A DNA stretch of 64,000 nt, from assembly GCA_964348065.1 (NCBI GenBank), contig CAYGBE010000155.1, positions 35,664-99,663 on the forward strand, read 5' to 3'. The position numbers and the translations under genes are program-made. The stretch comes from an uncultured archaeon. Lineage in GTDB: Archaea; Aenigmatarchaeota; Aenigmatarchaeia; Aenigmatarchaeales; Aenigmatarchaeaceae. The notes under the pieces are model-generated. The model had not been told where the DNA came from and searched no databases. It saw only the letters and a list, made by a program, of their open reading frames with translations. Below are positions 40,624 through 63,288 of this stretch, one piece after another. Position 1 is the stretch's first letter; the number at the start of each line of letters is the position of its first letter.

Positions 40624-41223
40624 ATGGCATTTGAATATTTAGGTTCAGGAACTGTAGACTTAACTAATCTGATATTTAGAGAAATATTAAAAATTAGTCC
40701 TACTCTTATGTCTAGATACTTTACTCTTCAAGATCAAGTTTTATATTTAATCTTAATTCCTTCTGTTATTATTATTTTATTCATCTGGACTTTTGGTTAC
40801 TGGATTGTTGGAAGTGCTCACAGAGGTCTTAGACTTCTAATTTCAATGATTGCTTATATTTACATTGTTTATTCTGGGTGGTATGGTTCATTCATTATTC
40901 CGATAATATTGGCTTGGTTCCCAATGGTATTACTGTCATTTTTCCTATTCTTTATAATGACAAGAATATTCCATCCATTGAATATTAGTGGAGCATCAAA
41001 AATTATTAGTGCAGGTTTTGAAAAAGGTAGTAGAAAAGGGAGAGACATTAAAAAATTAGAACATAAAATAGATATGGTCCAAAGAAAGATTACAAAAACT
41101 AGACAACAAGAAGCATCAGCACAAGATAATGAAACAAGAGCTCGCCTAAGAAGAGTAAGAATAGCACTAGAGCATAAAAAAATGGATTTAGAAGACAAAC
41201 TTGACAGAGTAGAAGGCGGCTAA
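40624..41223 (+). CDS. membrane protein (3-4 TM) with a C-terminal charged coiled-coil tail
   Basis: 199 aa. TM block followed by …KKLEHKIDMVQRKITKTRQQEASAQDNETRARLRRVRIALEHKKMDLEDKLDRVEGG. Confidence 0.5.
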   Translation: MAFEYLGSGTVDLTNLIFREILKISPTLMSRYFTLQDQVLYLILIPSVIIILFIWTFGYWIVGSAHRGLRLLISMIAYIYIVYSGWYGSFIIPIILAWFPMVLLSFFLFFIMTRIFHPLNISGASKIISAGFEKGSRKGRDIKKLEHKIDMVQRKITKTRQQEASAQDNETRARLRRVRIALEHKKMDLEDKLDRVEGG

Positions 41224-41224
41224 C

Positions 41225-41704
41225 ATGGCTCTTCCGTTTGATATAACAATGTTCCAATCAGAAGAGATTCTAGTACCATTTCTATTTATTTTAGCAGTTG
41301 TTTTTGGTGCTGTTAATAAAACCAATGTTTTTAGAAACAGAGGTGTTAATTTTCTAGTCTCTTTGGCATTAGCATTTTTTGCAGTTTCCAACACAGCCTT
41401 CATTGATTTTCTCTGGTCCCAATTTGGAAGCATAACAATATTCTTTATTGCCATGTTTTTCATAATTTTTGTACTTGAAGCTTTTGGAGTAAGAAAAGGG
41501 CCAGGAGGAAACGGTGCAGATGCCTTAATAATAAATGCTGGCGTACTTTTTGTTTTATTGTCAATAGGTTATTTGTACACAGACTTTTTCCCAAGGCTTC
41601 CAATAATAGGTGGGGGTCAGAATCTTCTACTTCTTATTCTAGTAGTGTTTATAGTACTAATTTTCTGGTTTGCCTATAAGTCTGGATCACCACAAAGACG
41701 TTAA
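41225..41704 (+). CDS. small 4-TM membrane protein, LE-motif family paralog 1
   Basis: LAVVFGA…IFVLEAFGVRKGPGGNGADALIINAG aligns with 41777 and 42374. Confidence 0.5.
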   Translation: MALPFDITMFQSEEILVPFLFILAVVFGAVNKTNVFRNRGVNFLVSLALAFFAVSNTAFIDFLWSQFGSITIFFIAMFFIIFVLEAFGVRKGPGGNGADALIINAGVLFVLLSIGYLYTDFFPRLPIIGGGQNLLLLILVVFIVLIFWFAYKSGSPQRR

Positions 41705-41776
41705 TTATCGTAGAGTAGTGAAAAAAGATAGTTTTATATACTAGTTCTATTCAATATATTACTAGGTGGTAGTAAT

Positions 41777-42355
41777 ATGAAATTAACCGAAAACATAGAA
41801 AAAACCTGGGCATTTTTGTTAGGGTTTTTAGTAGCCGCAACTCCAGCATTGGCAAACCCCATTGAATCAATGATAGTTACATTAAGAGATGCTGGGTTTC
41901 AATTAGTTTTGTTATGGCTATTAACCTTAGCAGTAGTCTATGGTATATTATCTCATGTAGAGTTACCTAAATCAATAACAGCCAGAGGAGTGATATCAAT
42001 AGTTGCTTCATTCCTAGTTTTAGTGGCTGCTGCAGGAACACAAGCTGCTACATTCCTTAGCTCTATGACCACAGGAGCAATAGTGGTTGCTTTTGGATTA
42101 ATGATTACAATGATCTTCCTTGAAATAACTCAAACCAAAGCTGAAGGAGAACATATATTTTCCAAACATCCAAGATTTTTTGGAGCAGCTTTAATAGCAA
42201 TTGCAATAATGGTGTTCGTTGGAGCAGGTGGATTGAATTTCATAGCAATTCCAATGATATCAATCTCAGCACCAGTAATGGCAATTGGAGTTTTTTTAAT
42301 CGTTATGGTGGCAAGTGTATGGATATTAGTTAAAGAAACAGGTGAAAGTAAATAA
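41777..42355 (+). CDS. small membrane protein, LE-motif family paralog 2 (with N-terminal signal-like segment)
   Basis: LVLLWLLTLAVVYGIL…ISIVASFLVLVA…IFLEITQTKAEGE…VGAGGL. Clear alignment to 42374. Confidence 0.5.
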   Translation: MKLTENIEKTWAFLLGFLVAATPALANPIESMIVTLRDAGFQLVLLWLLTLAVVYGILSHVELPKSITARGVISIVASFLVLVAAAGTQAATFLSSMTTGAIVVAFGLMITMIFLEITQTKAEGEHIFSKHPRFFGAALIAIAIMVFVGAGGLNFIAIPMISISAPVMAIGVFLIVMVASVWILVKETGESK

Positions 42356-42373
42356 AAAAATTGGTGAAAAAAT

Positions 42374-42883
42374 ATGCCAGATGGAATATTTGCATTCCTA
42401 GCGGGATTAGGTCTACCTCATTTACTATTGTGGGTATTGACATTCGCAGTGGTCTTTGCAGTATTAACAAAGCTTAAAGTGTTCGGTAGAGCACCAGCTA
42501 CTTTGATTTCAATAGTTGCAGGTGTTTTCGTATTAATGGCAGTTCCAGCTGCTTTGGTAACAGTAATTGCCGGTATGTCAACAGGTTTAGTTGCAGTTGC
42601 TATAGGTGTAATTACCTTAATAGCATTACTAGAAATTGCTGGAGCTAAACATGAAGTAAGAGATAAAGATGGTAATGTAACTGGTTACGCACCTTGGACT
42701 CATGGACATGGAACTGCAATGGCTGCAATAATGATAGTAGTTGCATTATTGATATTCAATGCTGTAGGCGGACTTGCATTACTTGGAATTAGTATACCTA
42801 CATTTGGTTATGGAACATGGCTTTTAATCCTAGTAGGAATAGCTGTATTGTGGATGATGTCAGAATCTCCTAAAGCAGTTTAG
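42374..42883 (+). CDS. small membrane protein, LE-motif family paralog 3
   Basis: HLLLWVLTFAVVFAVL…ISIVAGVFVLMA…ALLEIAGAKHEVR…AVGGLALLG. Confidence 0.5.
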   Translation: MPDGIFAFLAGLGLPHLLLWVLTFAVVFAVLTKLKVFGRAPATLISIVAGVFVLMAVPAALVTVIAGMSTGLVAVAIGVITLIALLEIAGAKHEVRDKDGNVTGYAPWTHGHGTAMAAIMIVVALLIFNAVGGLALLGISIPTFGYGTWLLILVGIAVLWMMSESPKAV

Positions 42884-42901
42884 TGACTTTCAGTGACTTT
42901 T

Positions 42902-43681
42902 TTATTTTTCTTTTTTTAATTTTTCTACCAAATTAGACATGGTTCTAATATTACCTGTTAATTCTGGAAGAAAATCTTTGAAAACTCTTTCAATAGATCC
43001 TATTCTTCCTTGTATTCCTTCTACAGATTCTCCAAATTCTTCAAGCTTAGAAATCATGGTTTTTTCTTTTTCTTCTAAAACACTTTCAATACTATTCATT
43101 TCTTTTCTCAAAGATTCAATCTGATTTTGCAATTGTATGTCTCTTTTTTCAAAACTTTCTAATCTTTTTTCAAATTCATCCCATCTTTCAGCAACTATTG
43201 CCTCAATTATTTCTTCAACAGTTATTTCAGTTGCTGGTGGTAATTGAGATCTTTTTACTTCTGGTTGTTCTGGTATTCTATGCTCAGGTACTACGTGTTC
43301 TACAGGAGGTGGTACTTGAACAACTCTTTCAGGTGGATAACCCATAGGCATTGGCCTTCTTGTAACTTCTCCCATTGGAACTGGTCCGCCAAAAGTTTCT
43401 TCTGCAGCAGTTCCTAAACCAGATGCAGTTGGTGTTGGTGCTTCTGGTACAGGTGCCTCAGCCGCTGTTAATGGTGATGGCGGTGCTCCAGAAACAACTC
43501 TTTCTTTTAGAGCAATTCTTAAAGCTTTATCAATATGCTCAGGAGTAAACCCTTGAGCTTCCAATCTAGCAATTATATCAGGTTCAGAAAGACCTTGAGC
43601 AGAATATCTTAAAACAAGATCAACTGGAATATAAATTTTTTTCTTTTCTTTTTTCTTTTTACCTAAACTAAACGGAAACAT
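42902..43681 (-). CDS. coiled-coil protein with a small N-terminal helical domain and a Pro-rich linker
   Basis: 259 aa. Lys-rich start, a PPSPLTAAEAPVPEAPTPTA linker and a C-terminal heptad-rich region. Divergent from the ATPase gene. Confidence 0.45.
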   Translation of the reverse strand: MFPFSLGKKKKEKKKIYIPVDLVLRYSAQGLSEPDIIARLEAQGFTPEHIDKALRIALKERVVSGAPPSPLTAAEAPVPEAPTPTASGLGTAAEETFGGPVPMGEVTRRPMPMGYPPERVVQVPPPVEHVVPEHRIPEQPEVKRSQLPPATEITVEEIIEAIVAERWDEFEKRLESFEKRDIQLQNQIESLRKEMNSIESVLEEKEKTMISKLEEFGESVEGIQGRIGSIERVFKDFLPELTGNIRTMSNLVEKLKKEK

Positions 43682-44057
43682 CTCTTAACCTCTCTTCTAT
43701 TATATTTTCTGCTTCTTCCCTTGTTATAAATTTTGTTCTTATTGGGTTATAAATCGATATTATATTCTCTAATTCTCTTAACTCTGTTTTCTTGGCTACC
43801 TTCTCTAAATTCTTATTAATCCTTAATAATTCATTGTCAATCTTAATTATATTTTTTTCTATTTCTTCGATTTTTGCTGTTAACTTCTCATTAATAGTCT
43901 TCTTCTCTTCTTCTAATCTTAAAACAATGTTTTCTAAAGTGTTAATTCGGTTTTCAATTAAAGAATCTCTTTCTTCTAATGATCTTAATCTTCTTACAGT
44001 CTCATTGGTTCTTCTTACAATTTCATTTAAAACTGGCTGAATGTCTTTTTCTGCCAT
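43668..44057 (-). CDS. small coiled-coil protein (129 aa)
   Basis: Continuous heptad-like E/K/L/I-rich sequence. Overlaps the upstream gene by 14 nt. Confidence 0.4.
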   Translation of the reverse strand: MAEKDIQPVLNEIVRRTNETVRRLRSLEERDSLIENRINTLENIVLRLEEEKKTINEKLTAKIEEIEKNIIKIDNELLRINKNLEKVAKKTELRELENIISIYNPIRTKFITREEAENIIEERLRDVSV

Positions 44058-48483: not shown

Positions 48484-50010
48484 ATGAAAGCAATTATGGT
48501 TAGTCTTGTTAAAAATCTTATTATTGTTTTAATAGTGTTTCTTTTGGGTCTTGGATTGCTTCTTTTAGCACGTGATGCTTTTTTAGGAAAATCCCTCGAA
48601 CAATTTAAAAGATTCAAAGTTTACAAACCTTACATTTTTAACGTAAATGATTTGTTAGTAGATCCAAATGACCCAGATGTTTTTGATGCAGGTGAATTAA
48701 GTAATTACCTTTCAACAACTTTTTGCAGTGATCTTAAAAATTGTTTAGAAGTGAATGCCAGAGGCGGAGAAAAATGCGTTATAAGTTATAAAGTTGAACC
48801 TAATGTAGATCTTGATCCTGATGACATTAGAATTGCCATAAACAACTGCCCCACAGAAGATATAAAGGAAGAGTTGTACGGTGGAATAGGAAGAAAGGTA
48901 TGTGGATTTAAGAGTGATTCGCTCAACCCAAATATAGACAGAATCAGAGAAGATAACATAACAATTGTGGATTATCAACCTTATTTGCATAACTGTTATC
49001 TTCCAGAAAGTCTTGGGACAAAAAATATTTTTGATGAAAAAGATAAGATTTATTATTTTTATAGTGGTAGGGGAGATGTGAGTGGATATGATTTTGAAAA
49101 CGGCGGAATAGTAAGAATAGTTATAACTAATGTTAGTGTAGTAGGTCTTTATGCAGACTGCTCTTATAGTGTTTATGTTTGTGGACAAAATGCCATAGCA
49201 GAATCTGAAGACGAAACACCAGTTGATGTTTTTAGAACTGTTCAGAACTTGCCTGAAGAAGAGCTCTACTATAATGAAACAGTCATTTGGAAGGGTGATA
49301 CACCTCAGGATTTTTTACAAATTTCTTTATGGTGGCTTCTTTGTAAGCCTTTTGAACTAATTGTTCCATTTCTAGATTGTGGAGATCTACCAAATCCAAT
49401 AAATTACAATATTTATGGCTATCACCCACGTACTTATGAATTTACATTTAATTCAAGCGGTTGTCTTTCACGCGGGACTTGTAGGGAAGCTTTAATTGAT
49501 GCTGCAGACGCTGGAATATGGGAATGGGGTAAAAAAAATTATAAAAAAGATAAAACAATGAAATACTTTAGAGATTCTTATTATCCAGACATAATGCGCA
49601 ATTATTTCAGCTATTCACCTATTGATATTAATAACATTTCGTATGATTCGGCAATAGCCTTTGGCTCAGGATGTTGGAATGTTAACTATGAAAATACAAA
49701 CACTGTTTACAGGCAAAGATTAATTTTTGGTGATGATGTTTTTATTGATTCAAATAGTCTATATCATATTTTTAATTTCAGTTCGCCTTTTAATCTAAAC
49801 GCAAACGAAAAATTAAGAATGAGTCTGGGAATTAAAAAAATATTTATTACGGGTAAGATGTATCATATTTTAATTGAAATGCCACCACTTATAATTTTAG
49901 ATAAAGAATCATCCAGACTTAAAGATGTTAAAGATACATATAATCTAAGAGATGATTTCGAATCAAGAACAATATTAGTTATGGATCCCATAACATTTTG
50001 TAGTGAATAA
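48484..50010 (+). CDS. giant-adhesin family paralog 1: pilin-like N-terminus (MKA + hydrophobic helix), Cys-containing extracellular protein
   Basis: 508 aa. N-terminus MKAIMVSLVKNLIIVLIVFLLGLGLLLLA. Shared signature DCSYSVYVCGQNAIAESEDE. N-terminal domain (GGIGRKVCGFKSDSLN) aligns with paralog 2. Confidence 0.6.
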   Translation: MKAIMVSLVKNLIIVLIVFLLGLGLLLLARDAFLGKSLEQFKRFKVYKPYIFNVNDLLVDPNDPDVFDAGELSNYLSTTFCSDLKNCLEVNARGGEKCVISYKVEPNVDLDPDDIRIAINNCPTEDIKEELYGGIGRKVCGFKSDSLNPNIDRIREDNITIVDYQPYLHNCYLPESLGTKNIFDEKDKIYYFYSGRGDVSGYDFENGGIVRIVITNVSVVGLYADCSYSVYVCGQNAIAESEDETPVDVFRTVQNLPEEELYYNETVIWKGDTPQDFLQISLWWLLCKPFELIVPFLDCGDLPNPINYNIYGYHPRTYEFTFNSSGCLSRGTCREALIDAADAGIWEWGKKNYKKDKTMKYFRDSYYPDIMRNYFSYSPIDINNISYDSAIAFGSGCWNVNYENTNTVYRQRLIFGDDVFIDSNSLYHIFNFSSPFNLNANEKLRMSLGIKKIFITGKMYHILIEMPPLIILDKESSRLKDVKDTYNLRDDFESRTILVMDPITFCSE

Positions 50011-50164
50011 AAATGAGAGGTCTTGATAAGGGTACAATCATAGCAATATTTGTTTTAGTCTTATGTTTATTAATTTTCTTTTTGATCTTAATAGATGTTT
50101 TTAATTTTGATATAACAAATCTAATACCACTCTGATATTTATATCCGTAATTTAAAATAAAATT

Positions 50165-52660
50165 ATGAAAGGCATATCACTTATTATTAGTGTATTCGTT
50201 CTTGTTATAACACTTTTTTTGGTTCTTACTTTTGCATCTATATTTGGTTTTTTTTCTGGAGAAGAAGACACTTCTATAGAACCATCTGATTCAATTGTAA
50301 TGGGTGATTATTCAACTTATATATTGGATGAAAATCCTGTTGATCCAAATACATATGATGAGTGCGACAAGTTAAAAAAAGCTATAAAATATACCATATT
50401 AAATGAAAGGTCTTATAAAATCGATGAAATAGCATATGGAGATGATCTTTATAGTCCTATTCCGTTTCCTTTTATAGGAGATTGTGCTGGTGAAGAAATT
50501 TTAACAGATATTGGGGGTGGACTATCACAAAAAGTATGTACATTTAGAACAATAAACTTAAATGATGTGCAAGGCAATGGTGCTGCTGGAAGCCCATATG
50601 GTGGAATAAGTGATTCTTTAAATCTTTCTTTTGATGTATGCTCTTATGGTAATGCTAATGATCCTTTTTTATTAGTAGCAGGTAATACAGGACCATTTCC
50701 TGAAGAAATTGATGCTGCCCCTAATATAGCTAAATTATATTATTCTCCTGATTATCTTTATCAAAGGGATGGAAATTACGTGCATCATCCATCACTAAAC
50801 GACAACAGTGCATTTGGTAATACCTATAATGGTCCAGGAAGATTAAAAATGTATGTTGGTAATGCAACATTTTTAGGTATTGCTCCGTTTTCTGGTGGTG
50901 ATTGTAGATTTAATCTTTATTTTTGCCCACGGCCAGCAATAGCAAGATCAAAAGAAAATGCAACAATAAAAATTTTTGATTTGTTTAAGAATTTAGAGTT
51001 ATTTTATTTTGATGTACTTGGCTTTATTCCAGACCACGTTAGAGATCAAACTGAATTGGCTGTACCTATGCCTGGTTATGATAAAAGGTTTTATAATTGG
51101 AACTACTATGATGTGCCTTTAGATGGTGAATATAAAGTTGAGACCATAATAAATGCCATTAAAGAAGGTTTGTATATAAGTACTAGAGCAAAAAATTATT
51201 TTTGGTCACATCCTCATTGGGATATTGAAAGAGACATTAATATAAATATGCCCGGAGAATGTTGGAATCCATCTTACACTAGCCGACTCACATCTAATAA
51301 TCCTGATGATCGTTCACACTCTATAAGATTTAATTGTGATGATGATAACATCTGCGCTGGCACTTTAAGAATAAAAATAGGTATAAGACATGACAATATT
51401 ACTCAAAACGTAGATGGTGAAGATAAAAATTTAAAATATGTTTCAGGAATAATTGGCTTTTGTAGTAGTCTTAGACCAGTGGCAAATTTCCTAGAATCTG
51501 CAACAATAGTAGCTGTTGGTGAATCTATTAATTTTGATGCAAGCGGTAGCTATGATGATGGCACTATTGTAAGTTATGAGTGGGATTTTGGTGATGGAAG
51601 TACTGGTACTGGTGTATTAATCAGTCATGCCTATTCAGCTGTTGGAACTTATACTGTAACACTAAATGTAACAGATGATGAAGGATTATCACGAACAATA
51701 AGTGCAACAAAAACTGTTTATGAGTGTGGAAACGGTATTTTAGAAGCTGGAGAAGTGTGTGATGATGGAAATACTATAGATTGTAATCCGTATCCTGGAT
51801 GTACTGCTGATTGTTCGAGATGGCAATCTTGTGGGGATGGTATATCAGAGTGTACTGATGTTTGTGATGATGGAAACAATGTTAATTGTGATTCATACCC
51901 TGGTGGATGTAGAGGTGATTGTAGTAGAATAGAAGAGTGTGACAACAATATAGTAGAGTGTGGAGAAGAGTGTGACGGTACTACTATACCTTCAACTTGT
52001 TTAGCAGAGGGTTTTGTTGGAGGTGTCTTAGATTGTTATGCAGGAAGTTGTACATTTGATTATACTAATTGTGTTTGTGCTGATAAATGTGAACTTGGAT
52101 TTGAATATAGGAATGGTCTAGGTGATCCATGTGTATATTCTTTAATGAGAGATTGTAGATATGGTTGTAGTGGGGATAACTTGAACTGTATACCTGGAGA
52201 ATGGTGTCCCTCAGAAACTTGTTCAGGTGGTAGCTGTCCTTTCCCAGGTCCTTATGGAGAAACAGTTTCAACAGTAGCACAATGTATAAAACAAGGTGAT
52301 CCAGCACCTACTGAAACATATGAAAATAGATGGGCAACTAATCTTATTGATTGTTTAGGAAGTTGTGGGGGAGGAGGTAATTGGTGTAATATAGGCTTTT
52401 GGTATTGTTGTGGATCTAACGAGATATGTACTGCTACATGTGCAGTAGACACAACATGTACTTATGAATGTTATGACACGGGAGGTGGTTTGAACCAACA
52501 ATACACTTGTACAGATGGAGGTGCTTGTATTAATGGTTGTGATGATTTTTGCTTTGGAAATAATAAAGTTGGATTCGGTTGTGTACTCGATACATGTAAC
52601 ATGCTAGTTGGAATTGCCTGCCCTGCAGGAACAAATTGTGTTAATGGCGCTTGTGTATAA
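50165..52660 (+). CDS. giant-adhesin family paralog 2: MKG class-III-like N-terminus, PKD domain, three Myxococcus-type Cys repeats and a Cys-rich C-terminus
   Basis: 831 aa. MKGISLIISVFVLVITLFLVLTF. PKD motif …YEWDFGDGSTGTG…GTYTVTLNVTDDEG. Three repeats of CG[ND]G…GE.CDDGN. Signature DCRFNLYFCPRPAIA. Confidence 0.7.
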   Translation: MKGISLIISVFVLVITLFLVLTFASIFGFFSGEEDTSIEPSDSIVMGDYSTYILDENPVDPNTYDECDKLKKAIKYTILNERSYKIDEIAYGDDLYSPIPFPFIGDCAGEEILTDIGGGLSQKVCTFRTINLNDVQGNGAAGSPYGGISDSLNLSFDVCSYGNANDPFLLVAGNTGPFPEEIDAAPNIAKLYYSPDYLYQRDGNYVHHPSLNDNSAFGNTYNGPGRLKMYVGNATFLGIAPFSGGDCRFNLYFCPRPAIARSKENATIKIFDLFKNLELFYFDVLGFIPDHVRDQTELAVPMPGYDKRFYNWNYYDVPLDGEYKVETIINAIKEGLYISTRAKNYFWSHPHWDIERDININMPGECWNPSYTSRLTSNNPDDRSHSIRFNCDDDNICAGTLRIKIGIRHDNITQNVDGEDKNLKYVSGIIGFCSSLRPVANFLESATIVAVGESINFDASGSYDDGTIVSYEWDFGDGSTGTGVLISHAYSAVGTYTVTLNVTDDEGLSRTISATKTVYECGNGILEAGEVCDDGNTIDCNPYPGCTADCSRWQSCGDGISECTDVCDDGNNVNCDSYPGGCRGDCSRIEECDNNIVECGEECDGTTIPSTCLAEGFVGGVLDCYAGSCTFDYTNCVCADKCELGFEYRNGLGDPCVYSLMRDCRYGCSGDNLNCIPGEWCPSETCSGGSCPFPGPYGETVSTVAQCIKQGDPAPTETYENRWATNLIDCLGSCGGGGNWCNIGFWYCCGSNEICTATCAVDTTCTYECYDTGGGLNQQYTCTDGGACINGCDDFCFGNNKVGFGCVLDTCNMLVGIACPAGTNCVNGACV

Positions 52661-52944
52661 AAACATTTATAATTTTAAATAAAAAAATTATCCTGGTCTT
52701 TTATAAACATACTTAACTTCACTTTTTCTCTTTTTATAGAATAACCAAATTAAGTAAATGGCAAGTATAATGAGTAAAGGTAGAAAAACAAGGAAAGATA
52801 AAATAAGTAGTAAAATTATAATCTTTTTTTGGTTTGACTTAAAAAATTCTTTTATACCCATATATATTCTTAAATAACAGCGGTTTAAATATTTTTTGAA
52901 ACAATATCAACACTAATTTATATACGGAAAATTAAAAATAAAAT

Positions 52945-53580
52945 ATGGAAAAGGGGCAATTCGTTCTTTATATTGTTTTGACAGTTGTACTTTTGGCACT
53001 TGTTTTTGTTTTTGTTACTCAAATGTTGTCTTTATCAGAAAGGGCTGAAGAAGAGCTCTCACCCACACTTGAAGAACCAGAAGAAGTTTTAGAATCCAGA
53101 TACACTTCATTGGTCTTATCTCCTGAAGATTTACCAGAAGATATAATTTACAAACTGTTTAGACATTTTGATCCAGTATTTTTAAATGAAACAAGTGGTC
53201 CAATAGTACTTTATAATGTATTTATATTGGACCTCAAAGGAAATGAGTATGATGATACTACTGGTTTTTTGATAGAAAACTTAACAGAAGGTATAGAAGA
53301 CTTTAGTGCTTATGATAATCTCTATCAAATAGGTAGGGATGCTCAACAACCACCAAATTGTGGAGCTGTACAAAGAACTAATGTTATAAATTATAATAAT
53401 GACTGTTGGAGTGGCGTTTTAGCCCTTGTTGGGCCCTGCAGTATTTATGTGAATGGTGATGCAAACGATAAATTTAATGATAGAATAAAAATAAGAGTAA
53501 TGTGGCGATTTACAGGATTAACATCACCTATTACAGATAGAGAAATAATTCGCCCCATAGTAACAATATGTGATGGTTGA
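52945..53580 (+). CDS. pilin-like protein (211 aa) with a class-III-signal-like N-terminus
   Basis: MEKGQFVLYIVLTVVLLALVFVFV: K-G followed immediately by a 20-residue hydrophobic helix, as in archaeal prepilins. Confidence 0.5.
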   Translation: MEKGQFVLYIVLTVVLLALVFVFVTQMLSLSERAEEELSPTLEEPEEVLESRYTSLVLSPEDLPEDIIYKLFRHFDPVFLNETSGPIVLYNVFILDLKGNEYDDTTGFLIENLTEGIEDFSAYDNLYQIGRDAQQPPNCGAVQRTNVINYNNDCWSGVLALVGPCSIYVNGDANDKFNDRIKIRVMWRFTGLTSPITDREIIRPIVTICDG

Positions 53581-53957
53581 TTTTAGTGGAAATAGAAGAA
53601 ACATTCAAAACCCTTATGGGAGTAATGATGGTGCTGGCAGTTATAATAGTAGTGGCTGTAGTAGGAGGAGGTTTAGTAAGAGGAAGCACATATATAAAAG
53701 AGTGTAATCCTGCTGAGTACGATGCAACACGTCTTGCTCCTAGTGTTGAGCCATGTGGTTTTGTCGACAGTGGTTTGGGGCCTGAACGTGTTTATTGCGA
53801 AGAAATAATAAAAATTATTGAGGGAGTTCCAGTACCCTTTGCTGACAAATGTATGGATGCAGGAAAAAATAAATGTTGCCCTATAGTAACTGAAACAGGC
53901 TATGATTGGTATGTAGAGGTAATTGGAAATCGCTGTTGTAAGGTAACGGTGCTTTAG
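53577..53957 (+). CDS. small membrane-anchored Cys-containing protein (126 aa)
   Basis: N-terminal hydrophobic helix (VMMVLAVIIVVAVVGGGLV), then a soluble domain with 6 Cys. Confidence 0.35.
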   Translation: MILVEIEETFKTLMGVMMVLAVIIVVAVVGGGLVRGSTYIKECNPAEYDATRLAPSVEPCGFVDSGLGPERVYCEEIIKIIEGVPVPFADKCMDAGKNKCCPIVTETGYDWYVEVIGNRCCKVTVL

Positions 53958-54136
53958 TGTCTGAAGAACTTATTGAAATGGTACTTATATTTATAATAGC
54001 GGGCGCACTTCTCGCAATGATAATTTTATTTTTAATGAATGTAAGATTAACAAGCGGTTTATTTGGAAACATGTTTTGGATAAGGGCGGGCATAGAAGCA
54101 CTTCTTGCCATATTAGGCATAAGAGGCGCTTTTTAA
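53957..54136 (+). CDS. 59-aa hydrophobic ORF (GTG start; alternative ATG at 53975)
   Basis: Hand-translated: …MVLIFIIAGALLAMIILFLMN…GIEALLAILGIRGAF. Not in the track. Confidence 0.25.
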   Translation: MSEELIEMVLIFIIAGALLAMIILFLMNVRLTSGLFGNMFWIRAGIEALLAILGIRGAF

Positions 54137-54181
54137 AATAATCATAATGGTATCTAATAATGCCATATATAGTGGTGTAAA

Positions 54182-54409
54182 ATGGATCAAGCTATAAAGA
54201 GTGCTGTTATAGTTATTGTATTTGTTATAGCTTTTGCACTAATAATTTTGATAATTCGTAGTGTATTAACAGGAGAAAGATTAGCAAACCAGTCATGTAA
54301 AGTGGTAACAAAATTCTTTGATCCGGTCTTATGGGTCCTTATAAGTAATGCAATAGACGTTTCTTTAAGGCCCTCAGATTTTATATGTGACACAATGGTA
54401 CCGTTTTAA
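54182..54409 (+). CDS. small membrane protein (75 aa)
   Basis: MDQAIKSAVIVIVFVIAFALIILII N-terminal helix. Confidence 0.3.
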   Translation: MDQAIKSAVIVIVFVIAFALIILIIRSVLTGERLANQSCKVVTKFFDPVLWVLISNAIDVSLRPSDFICDTMVPF

Positions 54410-54626
54410 TGGTGTAAAAATGGAATTTGAACTCGAACAAGAGACTTTTAGTAAAATTATTTATATTTTATTAGGGGTGATGGTATTAATAGCATTCGCA
54501 TTTATTTTAGATGTTATATTTTTTGGTGGGAATGTATTTGTCAGAAATATAGCTTGTTTGCTTGTGTGGTTTAATCCTATTAATATATTACCAGGTTATT
54601 TGGGTTGCGAAGCAATCCCATTTTAA
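54387..54626 (+). CDS. small membrane protein (probable start at ATG 54420, MEFELEQ…)
   Basis: A hydrophobic helix (IIYILLGVMVLIAFAFIL) follows the short polar N-terminus. Confidence 0.3.
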   Translation: MTQWYRFNGVKMEFELEQETFSKIIYILLGVMVLIAFAFILDVIFFGGNVFVRNIACLLVWFNPINILPGYLGCEAIPF

Positions 54627-54671
54627 AAACGATTTAGTTAATTTTATATTAAAAGAAGAGAAATTGAAAAT

Positions 54672-57600
54672 ATGAAAGCTGACGTTTTAATTACATTGCT
54701 TGTAATATTTATAATTGTTGTTGTTGGTTTTCTAGGCGTTTTTATTATTGGGCAAGTTTTTGGTTCAGACATAGAACGTTACTTTCAATCAACTTTCACT
54801 GGTTGCGGCAGGGAAGGACAAGAGTGTTGCCCTCAAAAGTGGTGTGACGCTGGATTAGAATGTTCTGAAATTAATATTTGTGTAGAAAAATTTGGCTATG
54901 AAGCAGGACCTAGTAATATCTATCTAATATACAATAGTACAGAATTTTTCAATAGTAGTCAAAGAGAAGATTTTTTCTACCTTAAAACTGGATTGGGTGG
55001 GGAAGATTGTTCAAATGCAATCAACTGCATTAATTGTACTAAATTATATCATTTTTCCAATGCTTTAACTTGTACAGATTGTGACTATTGTAATATAACA
55101 GACAACACTTGTGAGGACTGTTTTGTATGTGATTCTGCAGAAGGTGGCAATTATCAAGAACTTTTTGATTGTTATGATTGTGGTGGCTGTAATGTAGACA
55201 TCTCTAATTATATGGCTGATAGCTGTTCTCAATGCTCATTCTGTAATGGAGCAAACATATCAACCTATGAGAATGGTTTAAGTTGCTCTTATTGTAATGG
55301 TTGTGAACCTAATGTTGGTGATGATTGTTATTTTTGTTATGAGTGCGGTGGTTCAGAATATAAAGTATGTGAAAAATGTGAAAGAATAGCAGCAACAACA
55401 TGTGAAATTACGTCTGACTATGAATTGTGCCAAGCAGCTAAAGAAGAGGTAATGCTTTTTGATGGAGGGGGGGAGCCGATTGAAAGTTTTTTGCCTGTAC
55501 CATGGGAAACTACATATTCATTTTATACAACGGTTTCAAATGTTTTAGGTAATTGCCCTGTAACAGGAGACCTTAAAAAATTCATTGCTGAAGGTGGTAG
55601 ACAAAAAATATGTGAATACGAAAACAGTAATTTCGTAGAAAGATATTTTGAAAGTGATGACACAGCATACGTACCAGCAGATCTAATAAGAATGATCACA
55701 TCAGGAAGTATAACAGGTGAAAACAAAAAAGGAATTTTATTTAATAGTTGTGGTCCTCCACCACTCCCAGAAGAATATATAATGGGTAAATGTATTGACA
55801 CAGATGGTGGTTATAATAATTTAGTAAAGGGAACTTGTAAAGATGAAAGTACTTGTATTAATGGTTGCACTGATTATTGTAATGGGAATGCAATAGTCGA
55901 ATATGTTTGTGAATTCGATGATTGTATTCCTTTACTCCCTGAACCTCCTTGTCCTGCTGTTGAACCTCTTAATCCAAGTTGTGTTGATGGTGCTTGTGTT
56001 GGTGCTCTTGGCACTATTTATCATAATGATCCCCAAATATTTGGTAGTTCTGGAACAACTCCAAAAACTCCAGAAGATGATGTGCCTGTTAATTTACAAA
56101 TAGTAATTTCTGATGTATTGTGGAATGAAAATAGCACAAATGATTGTTCTTATAATGTTCATATTTGTTCACAAGAAGCTTTAGCAGAATCTGAAGATGA
56201 TGCTATTCTTGGTTTTTGGAACCTCTCTGCTTATTTTGATTTAAATGCTTATGAGGTAGAAATAAATGAGTGGCCACCTTTTGATTTAATTGATCCTATA
56301 TTTGAAGATGTCCAAATAAATGTGACAGCTTTTAGATACAGACCAACATTTAAAATATATGTAAATGCTAACTACGATGTACAACATATTGCAAAAGCGA
56401 TTGTAGCAGGTTTAAGAGACTATATGATTTATAATTCTTTTAATAATAAGACTGTTGAATTCTTTTGCACAAATAATAATTTACATCCAAATCTAGAAAC
56501 CTGTGTTCAAAATGATGTTTCTGTCCATCTAAATGATAAAGTTTCTTGGAATTTAGAAAGCTTTGCCTCAACTGTTGATACTTTAGCAAGTATTCCTGTT
56601 TATAAAAACATTTATTACAACTCGACCAAGACTTCTTACTCTAATGAAGAAGTTCCAATCCAGATAACATTCTTTGCTTATACAACAAACTATTCATTTA
56701 ATTATAATAATGAAAATCTATCAAGAAAAATACTTGTTTCACCAGTAATAGTTATTGGTCGTAATAGAGCAGCTGCTCCTACAGGATTATCTTTTGTTTG
56801 GGATTGTAGCAACTGGGATGAGGGAGATAAACACGATTTCTATAGCCCAACTTGCAGTGGAGACGAACCCTATGCTATTTCATGTGTATCTGAAAATTAT
56901 TATCCGACCCAAAGCACTGATGAAGGTGATTATGGTGAGGATTTAATTCAAAAAATAAAAATTAGAAACGATGAAAGTTGTGTGGTCAGATCTAGAGATA
57001 CGAGTGGTGGTAATGAACAGGGAAGAAGGGTATGTGTTTTATGTTCTAACAGAACACCCTCAATTGTTTGGGGATTAACTTCACCTTATGATCAGGATTG
57101 GTACACAACAACATGGGAAGTCGGAGAACCATGGTATATGTCTGTAGAAAGCAAAGAATGTCCTTCAGGTCATTATCCCATTTCTTGTTTGGCTGATATT
57201 GATGAATTAGATCCTAATCGGGGTGATGAGTTTGATGAAGTTGTATTAACAGATTTGTATTTAGAAGATAATAAATGCAAAGGAACGTTTCGTGATTTGT
57301 ATGGTGATGGGCCTTGGTTTAATAAGGGTGGCTATCACTGGTTTAGAATTACATTAGGTATAGTATGTTTTGATGAATATTTGGGAACTCCTAAATGGAC
57401 TGGTTATGTAAGCAAGGATGAAGGAACAGGACCTTCAGAAATTTGGCCCCTTACAATATCTGGTCATCCTATACAAAATTTCTCAAGTCTAGAATGTAAT
57501 GCAGCAGAATTTCCAGTTTCTGTTTTTTCTAGAGTAGATAGCTCAGACGCTGGAGCTTATACTGAAGACATATTGCAAAGCACGTATTTAGATGGACAAC

Positions 57601-57701
57601 GTTTTAATGTTAGTGCACGGGATATTGGACATTGTCCTTGGCATTCTCCCTGGTGTGACTGGACTGAACAAAAAAGAGATGTTGGTGTGTTATGTGTATA
57701 A
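54672..57701 (+). CDS. giant-adhesin family paralog 3: MKA class-III-like N-terminus, tandem CxxCxxC array, conserved ESED domain
   Basis: 1009 aa. MKADVLITLLVIFIIVVVGF. Seven CxxCxxC units between residues 113 and 236. Signature DCSYNVHICSQEALAESEDD. Confidence 0.65.
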   Translation: MKADVLITLLVIFIIVVVGFLGVFIIGQVFGSDIERYFQSTFTGCGREGQECCPQKWCDAGLECSEINICVEKFGYEAGPSNIYLIYNSTEFFNSSQREDFFYLKTGLGGEDCSNAINCINCTKLYHFSNALTCTDCDYCNITDNTCEDCFVCDSAEGGNYQELFDCYDCGGCNVDISNYMADSCSQCSFCNGANISTYENGLSCSYCNGCEPNVGDDCYFCYECGGSEYKVCEKCERIAATTCEITSDYELCQAAKEEVMLFDGGGEPIESFLPVPWETTYSFYTTVSNVLGNCPVTGDLKKFIAEGGRQKICEYENSNFVERYFESDDTAYVPADLIRMITSGSITGENKKGILFNSCGPPPLPEEYIMGKCIDTDGGYNNLVKGTCKDESTCINGCTDYCNGNAIVEYVCEFDDCIPLLPEPPCPAVEPLNPSCVDGACVGALGTIYHNDPQIFGSSGTTPKTPEDDVPVNLQIVISDVLWNENSTNDCSYNVHICSQEALAESEDDAILGFWNLSAYFDLNAYEVEINEWPPFDLIDPIFEDVQINVTAFRYRPTFKIYVNANYDVQHIAKAIVAGLRDYMIYNSFNNKTVEFFCTNNNLHPNLETCVQNDVSVHLNDKVSWNLESFASTVDTLASIPVYKNIYYNSTKTSYSNEEVPIQITFFAYTTNYSFNYNNENLSRKILVSPVIVIGRNRAAAPTGLSFVWDCSNWDEGDKHDFYSPTCSGDEPYAISCVSENYYPTQSTDEGDYGEDLIQKIKIRNDESCVVRSRDTSGGNEQGRRVCVLCSNRTPSIVWGLTSPYDQDWYTTTWEVGEPWYMSVESKECPSGHYPISCLADIDELDPNRGDEFDEVVLTDLYLEDNKCKGTFRDLYGDGPWFNKGGYHWFRITLGIVCFDEYLGTPKWTGYVSKDEGTGPSEIWPLTISGHPIQNFSSLECNAAEFPVSVFSRVDSSDAGAYTEDILQSTYLDGQRFNVSARDIGHCPWHSPWCDWTEQKRDVGVLCV

Positions 57702-57718
57702 ATTAAAAGAGATAGTTC

Positions 57719-60700
57719 ATGGTTGGTTATAGAGAAAAAATAATAATAGCAGTAGTAGTAATTGTTATTGGTTTATTAATAGGTCTTTATTTCCTTGAAA
57801 CTGCATTTGGTTTTGATTTAATAAGACACATATCAAGCCTTCCACTTGACATAGAAGATATTGAACAGCCTTTAGACATATCACAAATACCTGAATACGA
57901 AGAATATAGGGGCTCGGGACATGACGGTATGATTCTTGAAAGAGACGCTGGTGAGGATGAAATTAATAATAATTTTTTAATGGAAAGAATTCTTGTTACA
58001 GATTGTAGTGGCTGCTCTTCTTGCAATGGTGTTGATTTTGACAGTCCCCCTGATGGAGTGGTTGATGCTTATCTTTGCGATGATTGTAGTACTTGTGAAG
58101 GGATAACAGAAGCTAATAGGTTTGAAAATTGTATTGAATGTGAACCGGCTTTAGGAGATTGTTCAATCTGTGAAGACGTACAAGAAGAATATTCTTTATG
58201 TAAAGATGTAAAAAAATGCATTCTTGAGTACACAGGAAATCCAGAATATTATAAAAAATATGGTTGTATTATAAGTGAAATAGATCGCAATGAAAATGTT
58301 CATTTTGATATTAACACTCTAATAAATGTTTTATCGTCTTGCAAAAATGAATTAATAACACTTAACGTAGGTCACAATGCTACAAGAGAATTATGTTTTT
58401 TTAATAACGCATCTATATCCTATTATGATTTTGAAAGACCACAAGATTTTTATGTTAAAACTGATAAGCTGTTTTATAGGGCTTCTCTGCCTTCATTACA
58501 GTGGACTCTTTGTATTGAGGAGGGTTCAATTCTAACACCCTTTAAGCAAGTGGGGGGAGATCTTATTGAAAATTATAGAGCTTATGTGGCAATAGAAGGA
58601 AGTCCTGATGGAGAATGGGAGGTTTTTGCAGGACTTTTTGAAAACTATATCAACCCACTAACTTGTACCAATGCTGGACCTTATTACAAACTCGGGAATA
58701 TGAAAACCGATGAGAATGGTTTTGGACATGCAGAATTTATTGATTTTCCACAACAATGGAAAGATGATGTAGCAGATGATCCTGAATTAAATAGAATGAC
58801 TGGAATATTTGTAAAAAAGGTAGGAAGTGCAACATTTGACAGCGTATATGCTGCTTTTTATGCCAACGAACCTGAAAGTAGTGGAACATGGTCTGGAGAT
58901 CTTAGATATGCGAATTGTAATTTTAACACAGACCCAGAACCATATTTAGAAGAAAGACCATGGTGGGTTCTTCTTCCTGATGATTTAGATTCACCCTGGT
59001 CTCTTATTGAAGGAAACGTAGATTCATCAGTAAAGGTTTTTTATGATTCAACAATGCCTGGAGGAGGATTTTCTAAAAAACTTGATGGCGATGTAGATAA
59101 AGATGGCATGGTTAATATTCTTGATGTTTTGCTCTGTAATCTACATTGGGGTGAAGATTGGCCACCTTGTGATTGGGATAATGATGGTATAATAGGTGTA
59201 GATGACGTAATGTTTGTGGGTGCCAGATTTGGTGATACACTTGAGTTCAGTAGAGGTAATTTAAAACTATCTCTTGGAAGATTGGATACAGACTTTATGA
59301 GAAATTGTAAATTTGATATTTATATTTGTGGTCAGGAAGCATTTGCAGAATACGAAGAGGAATTGATACTAACTCTATCTGATTTTTTAATGAATTTTAA
59401 TCCTACAAATGTTTACAAAAAAAAACCAACACCCAACAATGAAATAATCATAATTTACAATTATTTTGAATTTGATTTGGATAAAGATTATACTATTGAA
59501 GAAATAGAGTCTGCAATAAAAACAGGATTTAGACTTTGGGAACAAGACCAATTTATCTTTACTAGCTATTTTACTGGTTTAGATTGGTTAAGCAGCGACA
59601 ATAATGATGGAATTTATGAAAATGATTGGTATAAAATACCCGGAGTAGTTTCATACGGTCAAGACTGTTGGAGTGCAGCTGTAGAGAATTTTATAGAAAA
59701 TAATGAAGAAAAAGCTATAATAGGTAATTGTCCTAGCGATGTTTGCGGACAAAAGTTAAAAGTTAGGGTAGCATTTAAATATAAAGAACCTAATGTAAAT
59801 GATCCATGGAAAACTCCTCTTTATCCAACAATAACATTTTGTGGTTTAGGAGCTACAGCAGCTGCTGTTTGTGGAAATGGAGTTTGTGAATCTGGAGAAG
59901 ATATTTCTAATTGTCCAGCTGATTGTTTAGCAAATAACCTAGAAGTTTTTGCATTTGAAAATAGTATTCCAGTTGGTGCAATGGTTGCAATAGGATTAGG
60001 AGATGTTAACTGGGGTGGTGTTGTTAATGATAATGATATATGGTTCTTCAATACTACTCATAATCCTAATAGTTGTTTTAATACAGCTCCAGGACATGCT
60101 AACTGGAATATTGATTGTGATATGAATTTGGATAACAGGGTAAATGCTTTGGATCAAGGAATTGTAAATGGTGCATATGGAAACACAATACCGATTTTCA
60201 CAACTACATTTGCTACTGATTTGGCTGCTGGAACATATGAACTAAGAGCAAAATATAAAAATCAGATTCAAAACAATACTAGTGTTCAAGTATTTTCAAA
60301 TCAAATAACAACAGTATACTTTAACTTTACAATAGATAACCTAGAAGTTCATGCATTTGAAAATAATATTCCAGTTGGTGCAATGGTTGCAATAGGATTA
60401 GGAGATGTTAACTGGGATGGTGTTGTTAATGATAATGATATATGGTTCTTCAATACTACTCATAATCCTAATAGTTGTATGTGGACAGCTCCAGGAGATG
60501 CTAACTGGAGTATTGATTGTGATATGAATTTGGATAATGTTATAAATTTTAGGGATATTATTATTGTAGCATTTAATTATGGGAAAACAAGACCAATTCT
60601 CACAACTACATTTGTTACTAATTTATCTATTGGAACATATGAACTAAGAGCAAAATACAAGAATCAGATTCAAAACAATACTAGTGTTGTTATACTTCCA

Positions 60701-62089: not shown

Positions 62090-62286
62090 CTGATAGTAGT
62101 GATGATCTAAGGATTATTGACATTTCTATTTTTTGCAGAAAAATCAAGGAATAGTAAGAATATCTACCATAGTAGCTAATGCTGATGAAAAAAATCCACT
62201 GTGGATAGTCCAAAAAATTAATAGTATAATAGCAGCAACAATTAAAGCAGCTATTAAAGCACGAGTAAAATTAATAACAGATTTCA

Positions 62287-62562
62287 TTATTGACACCTGT
62301 TATAAATACAAGTTCCACCACCACAATCTGGATCATTAGTTAAACAACCACAAAAAGTTGGTTCATTATTTATACTTAAACAATACGGACCAGTAGGTTT
62401 CGTATTACAATCTGAATTATCTCTACATTCAACCTCTTCTATTGCTAAAACAGTTCCCATCTCAACTCTTCCTGAAAATAAAAAGTTAAGATGAAATGTT
62501 AGAACTATGATAGCAAGGATTAAAGCCATAACATACCACACGTTAACTTTAAATCCTTTCAT
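62287..62562 (-). CDS. small Cys-rich pilin-like protein (91 aa) with an MKG N-terminus, opposite strand
   Basis: MKGFKVNVWYVMALILAIIVLTF followed by an 11-Cys domain (…CGCLTNDPDCGGGTCIYNRCQ). Confidence 0.45.
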   Translation of the reverse strand: MKGFKVNVWYVMALILAIIVLTFHLNFLFSGRVEMGTVLAIEEVECRDNSDCNTKPTGPYCLSINNEPTFCGCLTNDPDCGGGTCIYNRCQ

Positions 62563-62624
62563 AAAATTAATTAAAATTTTTTATATATAAAACTTTTATA
62601 CTGGATTTCACTTAATAAATATGT

Positions 62625-62975
62625 ATGAAAGGCGCTGTTGCAACAGACACTTTAGTGGCTATTGGTATAATGCTACTTATAATTTTAATACTTGCAATAA
62701 TTGCATATTTTTATATTTGGGGGCAATTTCATGAGATTTCATTAGAATCTTATATAAGTCAAAATTGTGGTGAATGGGTAAAAGAAGGATGCACTAAACG
62801 TTCTGCTTTACCTCCTGATGGTATAAGAATAGAAGTAGGAACTGAGACAAAATATTTGGGTGAATTATGTGTAGCCAATTATGGTGGAGATGTAAGTAAT
62901 TGGGAAAGTGAATTTGATAGTGACCCAAAATATTATGAAAATTGTAAAGCATTTTGTATGGGTTGTCCGGAGTGA
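62625..62975 (+). CDS. pilin/archaellin-like protein (116 aa) with a class-III-signal-like N-terminus
   Basis: MKGAVATDTLVAIGIMLLIILILAIIAYF resembles archaellin and pilin N-termini (KG then A…GTL-type hydrophobic helix). The C-terminal domain has 6 Cys. Confidence 0.55.
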   Translation: MKGAVATDTLVAIGIMLLIILILAIIAYFYIWGQFHEISLESYISQNCGEWVKEGCTKRSALPPDGIRIEVGTETKYLGELCVANYGGDVSNWESEFDSDPKYYENCKAFCMGCPE

Positions 62976-62979
62976 TAAA

Positions 62980-63288
62980 ATGAAAGGCGATTTATTAATG
63001 ACATTTGTTGTTGTTGTTGTAATAGCAATTGCTGTTTTATTGATTTGGTATTTGTGGTTACAGCTACAAAAGGGAACTGTTGATATAGTTGCAGCCCAGA
63101 ATATTTTAAGAAATTGTTGCACTGATAGAAGTAGATGGGATTGTGATATGACTAATTTAAATGTTAATTGTAATGTTCCTTGGAATGAAAATCCTGAAAC
63201 TCTACAGCAGGTAGCAACCAGAGCACAAATTGATTTAACTGACCCAAACGCACTTTGTAACTTTTGTAATTGCCAAACATGCTCATAA
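62980..63288 (+). CDS. pilin-like Cys-rich protein (102 aa), MKG N-terminus
   Basis: ATG at 62980, 4 nt after the previous stop: MKGDLLMTFVVVVVIAIAVLLIWYLW, then a 10-Cys domain. The track's longer 62908 start overlaps the upstream gene. Confidence 0.5.
   Translation: MKGDLLMTFVVVVVIAIAVLLIWYLWLQLQKGTVDIVAAQNILRNCCTDRSRWDCDMTNLNVNCNVPWNENPETLQQVATRAQIDLTDPNALCNFCNCQTCS

Follow-up and report, generated by a model that had tools for sequence, protein, structure and literature searches.

A family of cysteine-rich paralogues, probably pilin-like or pilus-associated modular adhesins, in a type IV pilus-like operon of an Aenigmarchaeota genome

A host-attached life is assumed for DPANN archaea, but we know of no attachment machinery for almost all DPANN lineages, Aenigmarchaeota included. 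The locus considered here lies in a 64-kb stretch of DNA (64 000 nt of contig CAYGBE010000155.1, hereafter the window) from an uncultured archaeon of this group. A sequence-only reading of it had noticed the same short Cys/acidic block in four large ORFs (A, B, C and D) and proposed that the four are paralogues which have diverged but share a core of unknown fold, to which lineage-specific accessory modules were added. Does the block mark a protein family and, if so, what could that family do?

All four 20-aa versions of the block were found, on the + strand, and the pattern [DN]C.[YF].[VIL][YH][VIF]C gave exactly four matches, one in each of ORFs A to D, in the six-frame translation of the window. 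Among the positions first reported (49155-49215 for A, 50897-50956 for B, 56142-56205 for C and 59305-59365 for D), the start of the block in C and its end in A were exact, and shifts of 1-4 nt were found elsewhere (Table 1). The proteins had also been called giant; at 508 to 1456 aa, they are better described as large. The N-terminal strings said to align between A and B do so: they lie at aa 130-148 of A and aa 114-133 of B, within a 204-aa BLASTP alignment. Profiles built separately, each from the orthologues of one paralogue, were compared with HHalign, and the matches were A-B (98.9%, E 1e-17, 301 columns), C-D (98.5%, 90 columns), B-D (98.4%, 187 columns), B-C (97.5%, 105 columns) and A-C (97.0%, 131 columns). 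D also matched S (95.9%, E 6e-9, 137 columns), to which it is aligned by BLASTP as well; S is a fifth, partial member which had been overlooked, lacks the Cys signature block and is present by synteny in all loci compared. One HMM covers all four cores, each as a single stretch (residues 1-508 of A and the core segments of B, C and D given in Table 1), and the MAFFT alignment of the paralogues is colinear, A, B and C being mutually only ~20-25% identical. When 1.84 billion cluster representatives were searched exhaustively with an HMM, 151 family members were obtained, and those bearing names are from Aenigmarchaeota only. A, B, C, D and the truncated S are ancient paralogues forming one family, restricted to the Aenigmarchaeota/DPANN lineage as far as its members are named.

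The minimal full-length member is A. In C and D, 150-270 aa separate the helix from the core, and in D the N-terminal sub-domain is weakly matched once more (aa 157-236), directly before the core. The accessory modules are indeed variable among B and D orthologues: besides the window's B, only 2 of 35 B orthologues scanned have the PKD domain, and the LVIVD and dockerin-like modules of the window's D were found in none of the four other D orthologues scanned, which gave no Pfam match of any kind. A-D are 45-55% identical to their own orthologues, over the core only, versus 65-79% for the ATPase and platform proteins encoded upstream. In this divergence, as in their changing modules, A-D behave like surface proteins.

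Table 1. Positions of the paralogue genes, their modules and the neighbouring genes (nt positions in the window; aa positions in the respective protein)
Feature	Position	Strand	Remarks
Predicted glycoside hydrolase-like secreted protein	19602-22739		elsewhere in the window
Four small polytopic membrane proteins	40624-42883	+	order and sizes kept in syntenic loci
Two coiled-coil proteins, divergently transcribed	42902-44057	-	order and sizes kept; also in locus L007
Secretion/assembly ATPase, FlaI/TadA/VirB11 type, 745 aa	44124..46361	+	Pfam T2SSE, E 5e-12
Polytopic membrane platform protein, divergent T2SSF/TadC/FlaJ type, 696 aa	46361..48451	+	Pfam T2SSF
Paralogue A, 508 aa	48484..50010	+	MKA start, TM helix, core domain only
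Signature block of A, DCSYSVYVCGQNAIAESEDE	49156..49215 (aa 225-244)	+	long beta-strand E225-236 with conserved C226 and C233, then acidic loop
Paralogue B, 831 aa	50165..52660	+	MKG start, TM helix; core aa 1-435 (nt 50165-51469)
Signature block of B	50900-50959 (aa 246-265)	+	
PKD domain of B	51473-51712 (aa 437-516)	+	Pfam scan
Cys-rich repeat region of B	51719-52657 (aa 519-831)	+	
S, fifth, partial member, 211 aa	52945..53580	+	TM helix; C-terminal core half aa 71-210 (nt 53155-53574)
Small single-TM gene T	53577-53957	+	same order in five other loci
Small single-TM gene u1	53957-54136	+	same order in five other loci
Small single-TM gene u2	54182-54409	+	same order in five other loci
Small single-TM gene u3	54387-54626	+	same order in five other loci
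Paralogue C, 1009 aa	54672..57701	+	MKA start, TM helix; core aa 272-717 (nt 55485-56822)
N-terminal Cys-rich region of C	about aa 44-250	+	after TM helix
Cys-rich module inserted into core of C	55788-56000 (aa 373-443)	+	45% identity to C-terminus of B
Signature block of C	56142-56201 (aa 491-510)	+	
C-terminal region of C	aa 718-1009	+	beyond core
Paralogue D, 1456 aa	57719..62089	+	TM helix; core aa 229-724 (nt 58403-59890)
Dockerin-like insert in D	59087-59194 (aa 457-492)	+	
Signature block of D	59303-59362 (aa 529-548)	+	
Tandem duplication in D, 402 nt	59934-60733	+	
LVIVD repeats of D	61238-62086 (about aa 1174-1456)	+	PF08309, E 4e-64
Small gene, candidate small pilin	62144-62296	-	M-[KR]-[GAS]-type start, hydrophobic helix
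Small Cys-rich gene, candidate small pilin	62287-62562	-	M-[KR]-[GAS]-type start, hydrophobic helix
Small Cys-rich gene, candidate small pilin	62625-62975	+	M-[KR]-[GAS]-type start, hydrophobic helix
Small Cys-rich gene, candidate small pilin	62980-63288	+	M-[KR]-[GAS]-type start, hydrophobic helix

The pointers to a likely function, both absent from the sequence-only reading, are the type IV pilus-like operon around the paralogues and their common M-[KR]-[GAS] N-termini. The ATPase gene opens a run of + strand genes with gaps of -4 to 284 nt, in which the platform gene starts at the last nucleotide of the ATPase stop codon (1-nt overlap) and the paralogue genes follow on the same strand. This arrangement is kept in six other loci compared (L001, L002 and L006-L009), with identical gene order, and the operon is syntenic in five other genomes. 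The best NCBIfam matches of the ATPase, FlaI (2.8e-37) and TadA (1.3e-28), are both under the equivalog cut-offs; it is 76-79% identical to its orthologues in five syntenic loci. T2SSF matches the window's platform protein weakly, over the full-length model (E 0.0048), and six of six platform orthologues (best E 2e-6). T, u1, u2 and u3 matched no Pfam or NCBIfam family. The genes upstream of the ATPase (40624..44057) gave weak coiled-coil Pfam matches only and could possibly encode accessory parts of the machine, synteny being the sole link.

Since the ATPase (FlaI/TadA type) and the platform (TadC/FlaJ type) belong to the operon of the paralogues, we infer that they are handled by a type IV filament machine; and because this operon is conserved, A-D and S are most likely adhesive, pilin-like surface parts. 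We therefore regard them as probably pilin-like or pilus-associated modular adhesins. Each has an N-terminal hydrophobic helix and, outside the cell, an alpha/beta core of about 400 aa, presumably tied by conserved disulfides, the block providing a central beta-strand with two conserved cysteines, usually followed by an acidic surface loop. The core is the part that stays the same, whereas the binding modules grafted onto it or inserted in it (PKD, Cys-rich repeats, dockerin-like Ca-binding loops, LVIVD beta-propeller) vary. In this reading, the pilin-like subunits would be A, B and C, whose minimal class III signal (M-K/R-G/A/S) would be cleaved, or at the least recognised, at its small residue, and D and S would be associated non-canonical partners; jointly they might build an adhesive tip, base or surface complex, with the filament body supplied by the small M-K-G proteins (62144-63288). 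We presume here that disulfides form, that the signal is processed and that the proteins enter a filament and act in adhesion, the likely role being attachment to a host cell or surface. The locus is a concrete, conserved candidate for the attachment machinery, in which a pilus-type motor is combined with five related surface proteins and exchangeable binding modules. We advance more tentatively the idea that the disulfide-stapled cores of A-D and S assemble into a hetero-oligomeric adhesion complex on an Aenigmarchaeota-specific type IV filament with three-residue class III signals. Such giant modular pilins, of unseen fold, would be structurally a new class among archaea and would form the host-attachment organelle of this DPANN lineage, where module swapping tunes host or surface specificity.

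How far do the N-termini support a pilin-like nature? A class III signal is a short hydrophilic leader ending with Gly or Ala, then about 21 mainly hydrophobic residues (PMC8179133). In A, B and C, a long hydrophobic helix comes directly after M-[KR]-[GAS], and this start resembles such a signal with a minimal leader of three residues. A leader of this length is unusually short and, if M-K-G is really processed, would be at the short extreme of the class III signals known. Exact M[KR][GAS] starts with at least 20 hydrophobic residues were counted in 119 of 172 family members. MK starts are, on the other hand, common in the AT-rich genome of the window: the ORF at 25953, for instance, has an MKA start yet no hydrophobic N-terminus. 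Over the whole window, 7 of the 9 class-III-like N-termini fall within 48.4-63.3 kb, and those of the other secreted proteins resemble conventional Sec signal peptides. The same kind of N-terminus is found in the orthologues of the small genes (62144-63288) in L001, L006 and L008.

The main competitor, which we consider somewhat unlikely, is that A-D and S stay uncleaved and are held in the membrane by their signal anchor (type II), as adhesins or S-layer-like wall components of the surface or envelope; they would be co-encoded and perhaps co-regulated with the pilus machine or form a sheath or stator around it, outside any filament. D, S and T have no K-[GA] start. In the pilin fold, the C-terminal half (alpha-1C) of a long alpha-1 helix is packed on an antiparallel beta-sheet; this arrangement is absent from both AF2 models (A: pLDDT 82.8, pTM 0.81; B core: pLDDT 87.9, pTM 0.86), where a flexible, low-confidence linker (residues 37-43 of A, 30-34 of B) lies between the globular part and the long TM helix, which is not packed on the sheet. 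Foldseek recovered no pilin structure with either model, and the Pfam and NCBIfam pilin and archaellin families matched none of A, B, S, T, C, D and the products of 62287-62562 and 62625-62975. A Pfam scan that covered about half of the window's ORFs detected no Peptidase_A24 prepilin peptidase, and the unassigned membrane ORF 30402-31280 bears no resemblance to one. Finally, S-layer-like proteins are often encoded in archaeal type IV pilus (T4P) loci, according to the text of PMC4858521, which however describes them as held by a C-terminal, not an N-terminal, helix. Plain signal anchoring also leaves unexplained the small residue at position 3, kept across A, B, C and four unrelated small families of the same locus. 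A further point against this competitor is that the genes follow the ATPase and platform genes in a strict order in every genome examined.

The reading as pilus-linked adhesins has precedents in known systems. The text of PMC4858521 describes large signal-peptide proteins as common in archaeal T4P loci, with many conserved cysteines, and reads them as adhesins or minor pilins; that of PMC6393860 predicts that DPANN 'dark matter' genes adjoining an ATPase and TadC encode diverse pilins. As here, a VirB11/FlaI-family ATPase and TadC/FlaJ are adjacent in the loci so described, and the proteins resemble A-D in their N-terminal hydrophobic signals, many conserved cysteines, fast evolution and lack of detectable similarity to other archaeal pilins, their function being deduced from context only. 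The shared ~400-aa core, its distribution and the fixed order of four to five paralogues are not mentioned in the text of either paper, to which the comparison is confined. Modular pilins with grafted binding modules are widespread in bacteria (PMC8179133). In S. sanguinis PilB/PilC, CofB, GspK and ComZ, a carrier module follows an N-terminal hydrophobic helix, the ligand-binding modules grafted or inserted vary between lineages, and a locus encodes several proteins of this build, as here; the carrier of A-D, however, has neither an IPR012902-type motif nor a pilin fold match, and its leader would be three residues long, without Glu5, in an archaeal system. Four to five related subunits in fixed order in the pilus operon are reminiscent of the core minor pilins of bacterial T4aP (FimU-PilVWX + PilY1) and the GspH-I-J-K pseudopilus tip. 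Like PilY1, D is a large partner without a pilin-type N-terminus and, in this strain, ends with a beta-propeller, but of LVIVD and not of PilY1/PilC (Neisseria_PilC / IPR008707) type; there is no sequence or fold relationship, and the analogy would be one of function.

A second, improbable alternative is a type II secretion-like or bindosome-like system, in which a short pseudopilus of the small M-K-G proteins would export A-D as cargo or present them as a surface array. Sulfolobus BasEF exports or presents sugar-binding proteins with class III signals, and here too large functional proteins with class-III-like N-termini adjoin ATPase and platform genes, the platform being FlaJ/TadC-like. The ATPase matches the bindosome ATPase BasE weakly (E 2e-14), with 53 bits against a cut-off of 1000, and FlaI and TadA score above it; even the best model, FlaI of the archaellum, gives 128.7 bits against a cut-off of 550, so that the locus does not qualify as an archaellum either. 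Archaellin, FlaF/G/H and solute-binding proteins were not detected among the neighbouring genes scanned with Pfam and NCBIfam, and the modules attached to A-D are of adhesin type.

The nature of the core itself bears on the third alternative, namely that it is a secreted enzyme, e.g. a glycosidase or peptidase acting on host envelopes, with catalytic acidic residues in the block. An ESEDE-like acidic run does follow the conserved strand in A, C and D, and the window encodes a glycoside hydrolase-like predicted secreted protein (Table 1). B-type members, however, have ARSKEN, AKSTDD or AKSKVN in place of this run, and in an alignment of 182 sequences no Asp, Glu, His, Ser, Lys or Arg column reached 80% conservation. 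The columns that did (A numbering) are C81, I88, C122, C140, C171, G208, C226, C233, A340, G344 and W398, to which an A/B-weighted alignment adds invariant C397 and C506; besides six to eight Cys, the conserved positions are thus Gly, Ala, Trp and Ile. Because no conserved residue is of catalytic type, the core looks like a structural scaffold, stapled by predicted disulfides, rather than an enzyme, and the third alternative is very improbable. Cys makes up 2.8-6.7% of these proteins versus about 0.1-2% of the window's cytoplasmic proteins. The core matched no family or fold, enzymatic or other: it gave no Pfam or NCBIfam match (37 + 39 members scanned) and no match in a PDB profile search, and neither of the two confident core models had a Foldseek match in PDB or BFVD. 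Since neither sequence nor fold was matched, we treat the core family as undescribed. The system is of a known type, but the protein family in it is new; as an extracellular domain of ~400 aa it could enter domain databases and serve as a metagenome marker for the system.

Lastly, that the block, short as first described, is a chance or convergent low-complexity motif in unrelated proteins is refuted by homology that is extended and colinear over 90-301 columns (HHalign E 1e-10 to 1e-17) and by the ~400 aa covered by the HMM as a single stretch in all four proteins. The block is the best-conserved strand of the domain and not an isolated motif: in both AF2 models it forms a 12-residue strand, then a loop, then a helix. 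A loose version of the pattern matches 140 of the 196 sequences retrieved, and the block is still recognisable in the divergent remainder.

The four 20-residue Cys/acidic blocks quoted in the sequence-only reading were all found in the window, 1-4 nt from where it had placed them, as was its second pair of quoted strings, from the N-terminal domains of A and B. The blocks lie in the four large genes A, B, C and D of a run that also includes S, a shorter fifth gene. When the whole window was searched in six frames, the pattern [DN]C.[YF].[VIL][YH][VIF]C occurred in four places only, which are the four blocks.

The gene run from the ATPase to D and its signature blocks (window positions)
Feature	Position (nt)	Strand	Length (aa)
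ATPase	44124-46361	+	745
Platform	46361-48451	+	696
A	48484-50010	+	508
Block of A	49156-49215
B	50165-52660	+	831
Block of B	50900-50959
S	52945-53580	+	211
Four small ORFs between S and C		+
C	54672-57701	+	1009
Block of C	56142-56201
D	57719-62089	+	1456
Block of D	59303-59362

The similarity is not a short match: the homology is extended and colinear. BLASTP among the window proteins gave alignments of 204 aa for A-B, 181 aa for B-D, 149 and 180 aa for C-D and 100 aa for B-C, and the MAFFT alignment was colinear, with additional common blocks (KVC, AIxxGL, CW, LRxxI and a terminal ITFC). For profile comparison by HHalign, one alignment was built separately for each paralogue, from orthologues in a 5.8-billion-protein collection (34 matches around A, 35 around B) and in syntenic loci. 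The values were 98.9% for A-B (E 1e-17, 301 columns), 98.5% for C-D (90 columns), 98.4% for B-D (187 columns), 97.5% for B-C (105 columns), 97.0% for A-C (131 columns) and 85.6% for A-D (N-terminal sub-domain). S matched the D profile (95.9%, 137 columns), which makes it a fifth member, though a partial one: the C-terminal half of the core is present and the Cys block is missing. A single HMM spans A 1-508, B 1-435, C 272-717 and D 229-724, each as one unbroken stretch. These results bear out a common core domain in diverged paralogues. The shared core of A-D and S, of ~400 aa, is cysteine-rich, non-enzymatic and without described relatives. D matched the N-terminal sub-domain once more, and more weakly, at aa 157-236 (nt 58187-58426), immediately before its main core match; the sub-domain may have been duplicated there.

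The run opens with the gene for a T2SSE ATPase (best NCBIfam matches FlaI, 2.8e-37, and TadA, 1.3e-28, both under the equivalog cut-offs). The second gene encodes a polytopic protein of the T2SSF/TadC/FlaJ type; the match covers the whole T2SSF model and is weak for the window protein, and six of six orthologues match as well (best E 2e-6). Five further loci with full flanks, from JGI, ENA and Logan assemblies, and a shorter sixth locus, L002, keep the order ATPase, platform, A, B, S, T (a small single-TM gene), three tiny TM genes, C and D, then two small genes on the reverse strand and two on the forward strand. Ahead of the ATPase come four small genes for polytopic membrane proteins and a pair of reverse-strand coiled-coil genes. 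Identity to the same five genomes is 76-79% for the ATPase, 65-68% for the platform and just 45-55% for A-D, where it is restricted to the core. A-D and S are part of a conserved operon that also encodes motor components of a type IV filament. The upstream region (40624-44057), with its four membrane and two divergently transcribed coiled-coil proteins, gave weak family matches or none; its genes keep their synteny with the pilus-like operon in related loci, the two coiled-coil genes in all of these, and the proteins may be uncharacterised machine parts. In one related locus (L007, 4115-7891), the ATPase orthologue is a 1258-aa protein with an intein (Intein_splicing and LAGLIDADG_3) that the window copy lacks.

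The locus belongs to a known type of system, the archaeal type IV pilus-like loci that encode large proteins of the adhesin or minor-pilin type. Makarova et al. 2016 (PMC4858521) interpreted large signal-peptide proteins from archaeal T4P loci, rich in conserved cysteines, as adhesins or minor pilins, and DPANN 'dark matter' genes adjoining ATPase and TadC were predicted to encode diverse pilins (Makarova et al. 2019, PMC6393860). We infer that A-D and S are extracellular. A prepilin-type peptidase and the assembly machine would act on A-C and possibly also on the small M-K-G proteins, and the paralogues would form an adhesive complex carrying exchangeable binding modules, a logic comparable to that of bacterial modular pilins or of a minor-pilin set with PilY1. 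The main alternative holds that they are signal-anchored envelope proteins or adhesins that stay uncleaved and are only associated with the machine; we give it a lower, though appreciable, probability. Several results argue against pilin membership: no pilin family was matched in Pfam or NCBIfam by A, B, S, T, C, D and two small neighbours, nor a pilin fold in Foldseek by two AF2 models; the helix-linker-globule geometry of the predicted models is unlike pilin alpha-1C packing; D and S are without the signature start; and the ORFs scanned, about half of those in the window, yielded no A24 peptidase.

The N-termini bear on the possible processing by a prepilin-type peptidase. A and C start with MKA and B with MKG, followed in each case by more than 20 hydrophobic residues. 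An exact M[KR][GAS] start is present in 119 of the 172 family members having an N-terminal hydrophobic segment; the exceptions are mostly D-type, or have a start apparently called too far downstream (e.g. P0001). A class-III-like filter applied to every window ORF gave nine matches, seven of them within 48.4-63.3 kb, and in the four small gene families downstream (62144-63288) this type of start is kept in other genomes as well. Secreted proteins elsewhere in the window, among them those at 4104-5732 and 19602-22739, carry what read as ordinary Sec signals at the N-terminus. The leader of A-C would be very short; the archaeal peptidase PibD reportedly accepts leaders of ~3 residues (Ng et al. 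2009, J Bacteriol). Judged by sequence, the A-C-type N-termini would fit a class III signal as defined in PMC8179133: a short leader whose last residue is Gly or Ala, followed by ~21 hydrophobic residues. D-type proteins, with no M-K-G start, have a conserved FGFD[LF] motif directly after the TM helix (aa 27-35 in the window D).

When 1.84 billion 50%-identity cluster representatives were searched exhaustively with HMMER, only 151 proteins reached E <= 1e-3; they cover A/B-like forms (matched from residue 1), C-like forms (matched from ~residue 240) and D-like forms (matched from ~residue 400). The organism names on family matches are Candidatus Aenigmarchaeota/Aenigmatarchaeota only; the window has a GC content of 30-35% and housekeeping genes that look archaeal by N-terminal reading. 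The core family appears small and lineage-restricted; it is a new protein family, possibly of new fold, and the locus offers a specific candidate for the attachment machinery in an uncultured DPANN lineage.

Module content differs between genomes, so that the lineage-specific accessory modules also stand, and the earlier reading of paralogues around a core of unknown fold is supported and extended. PKD is found in the window B and in two of 35 other B orthologues scanned; DUF4215, an InlB-type B-repeat and a Hint domain each occur in single other family members; four other D orthologues lack the LVIVD and dockerin-like modules seen in the window D. In D, a 402-nt tandem duplication (nt 59934-60733; 2.0 copies, 85% identical) encodes a 134-aa dockerin-like module, of which exactly one copy is missing from P0095 (a 90%-identity cluster representative of 1322 aa, from another NCBI contig); its copy number therefore varies between close strains. 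A Cys-rich module within the core of C (aa 373-443, nt 55788-56000) is 45% identical to the C-terminus of B (aa 768-831, nt 52466-52657; BLASTP E 2e-9), which indicates module exchange between paralogues. The core itself can also accommodate insertions; examples are C (aa 373-443), D (dockerin-like, aa 457-492) and P0067, a B orthologue from an Aenigmarchaeota MAG with an insertion of ~190 aa between the HPHWD and ECW blocks. Hint/intein-splicing-type Pfam matches, unusual for surface proteins, were seen in P0008 (an A orthologue of 773 aa) and in one member of the B-orthologue alignment, both predicted extracellular; they are possibly bacterial-intein-like or pretoxin-HINT modules.

Three other window features were recorded. 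A second tRNA (25133-25221, 89 nt), detected by Rfam and not by ARAGORN, may contain an intron. Two secreted proteins with Sec-type signals are a 542-aa protein (4104-5732) with 10% Cys and MopE-type metal-binding motifs, and a 1045-aa protein (19602-22739) with a GHL15/GH66-like glycoside hydrolase region.
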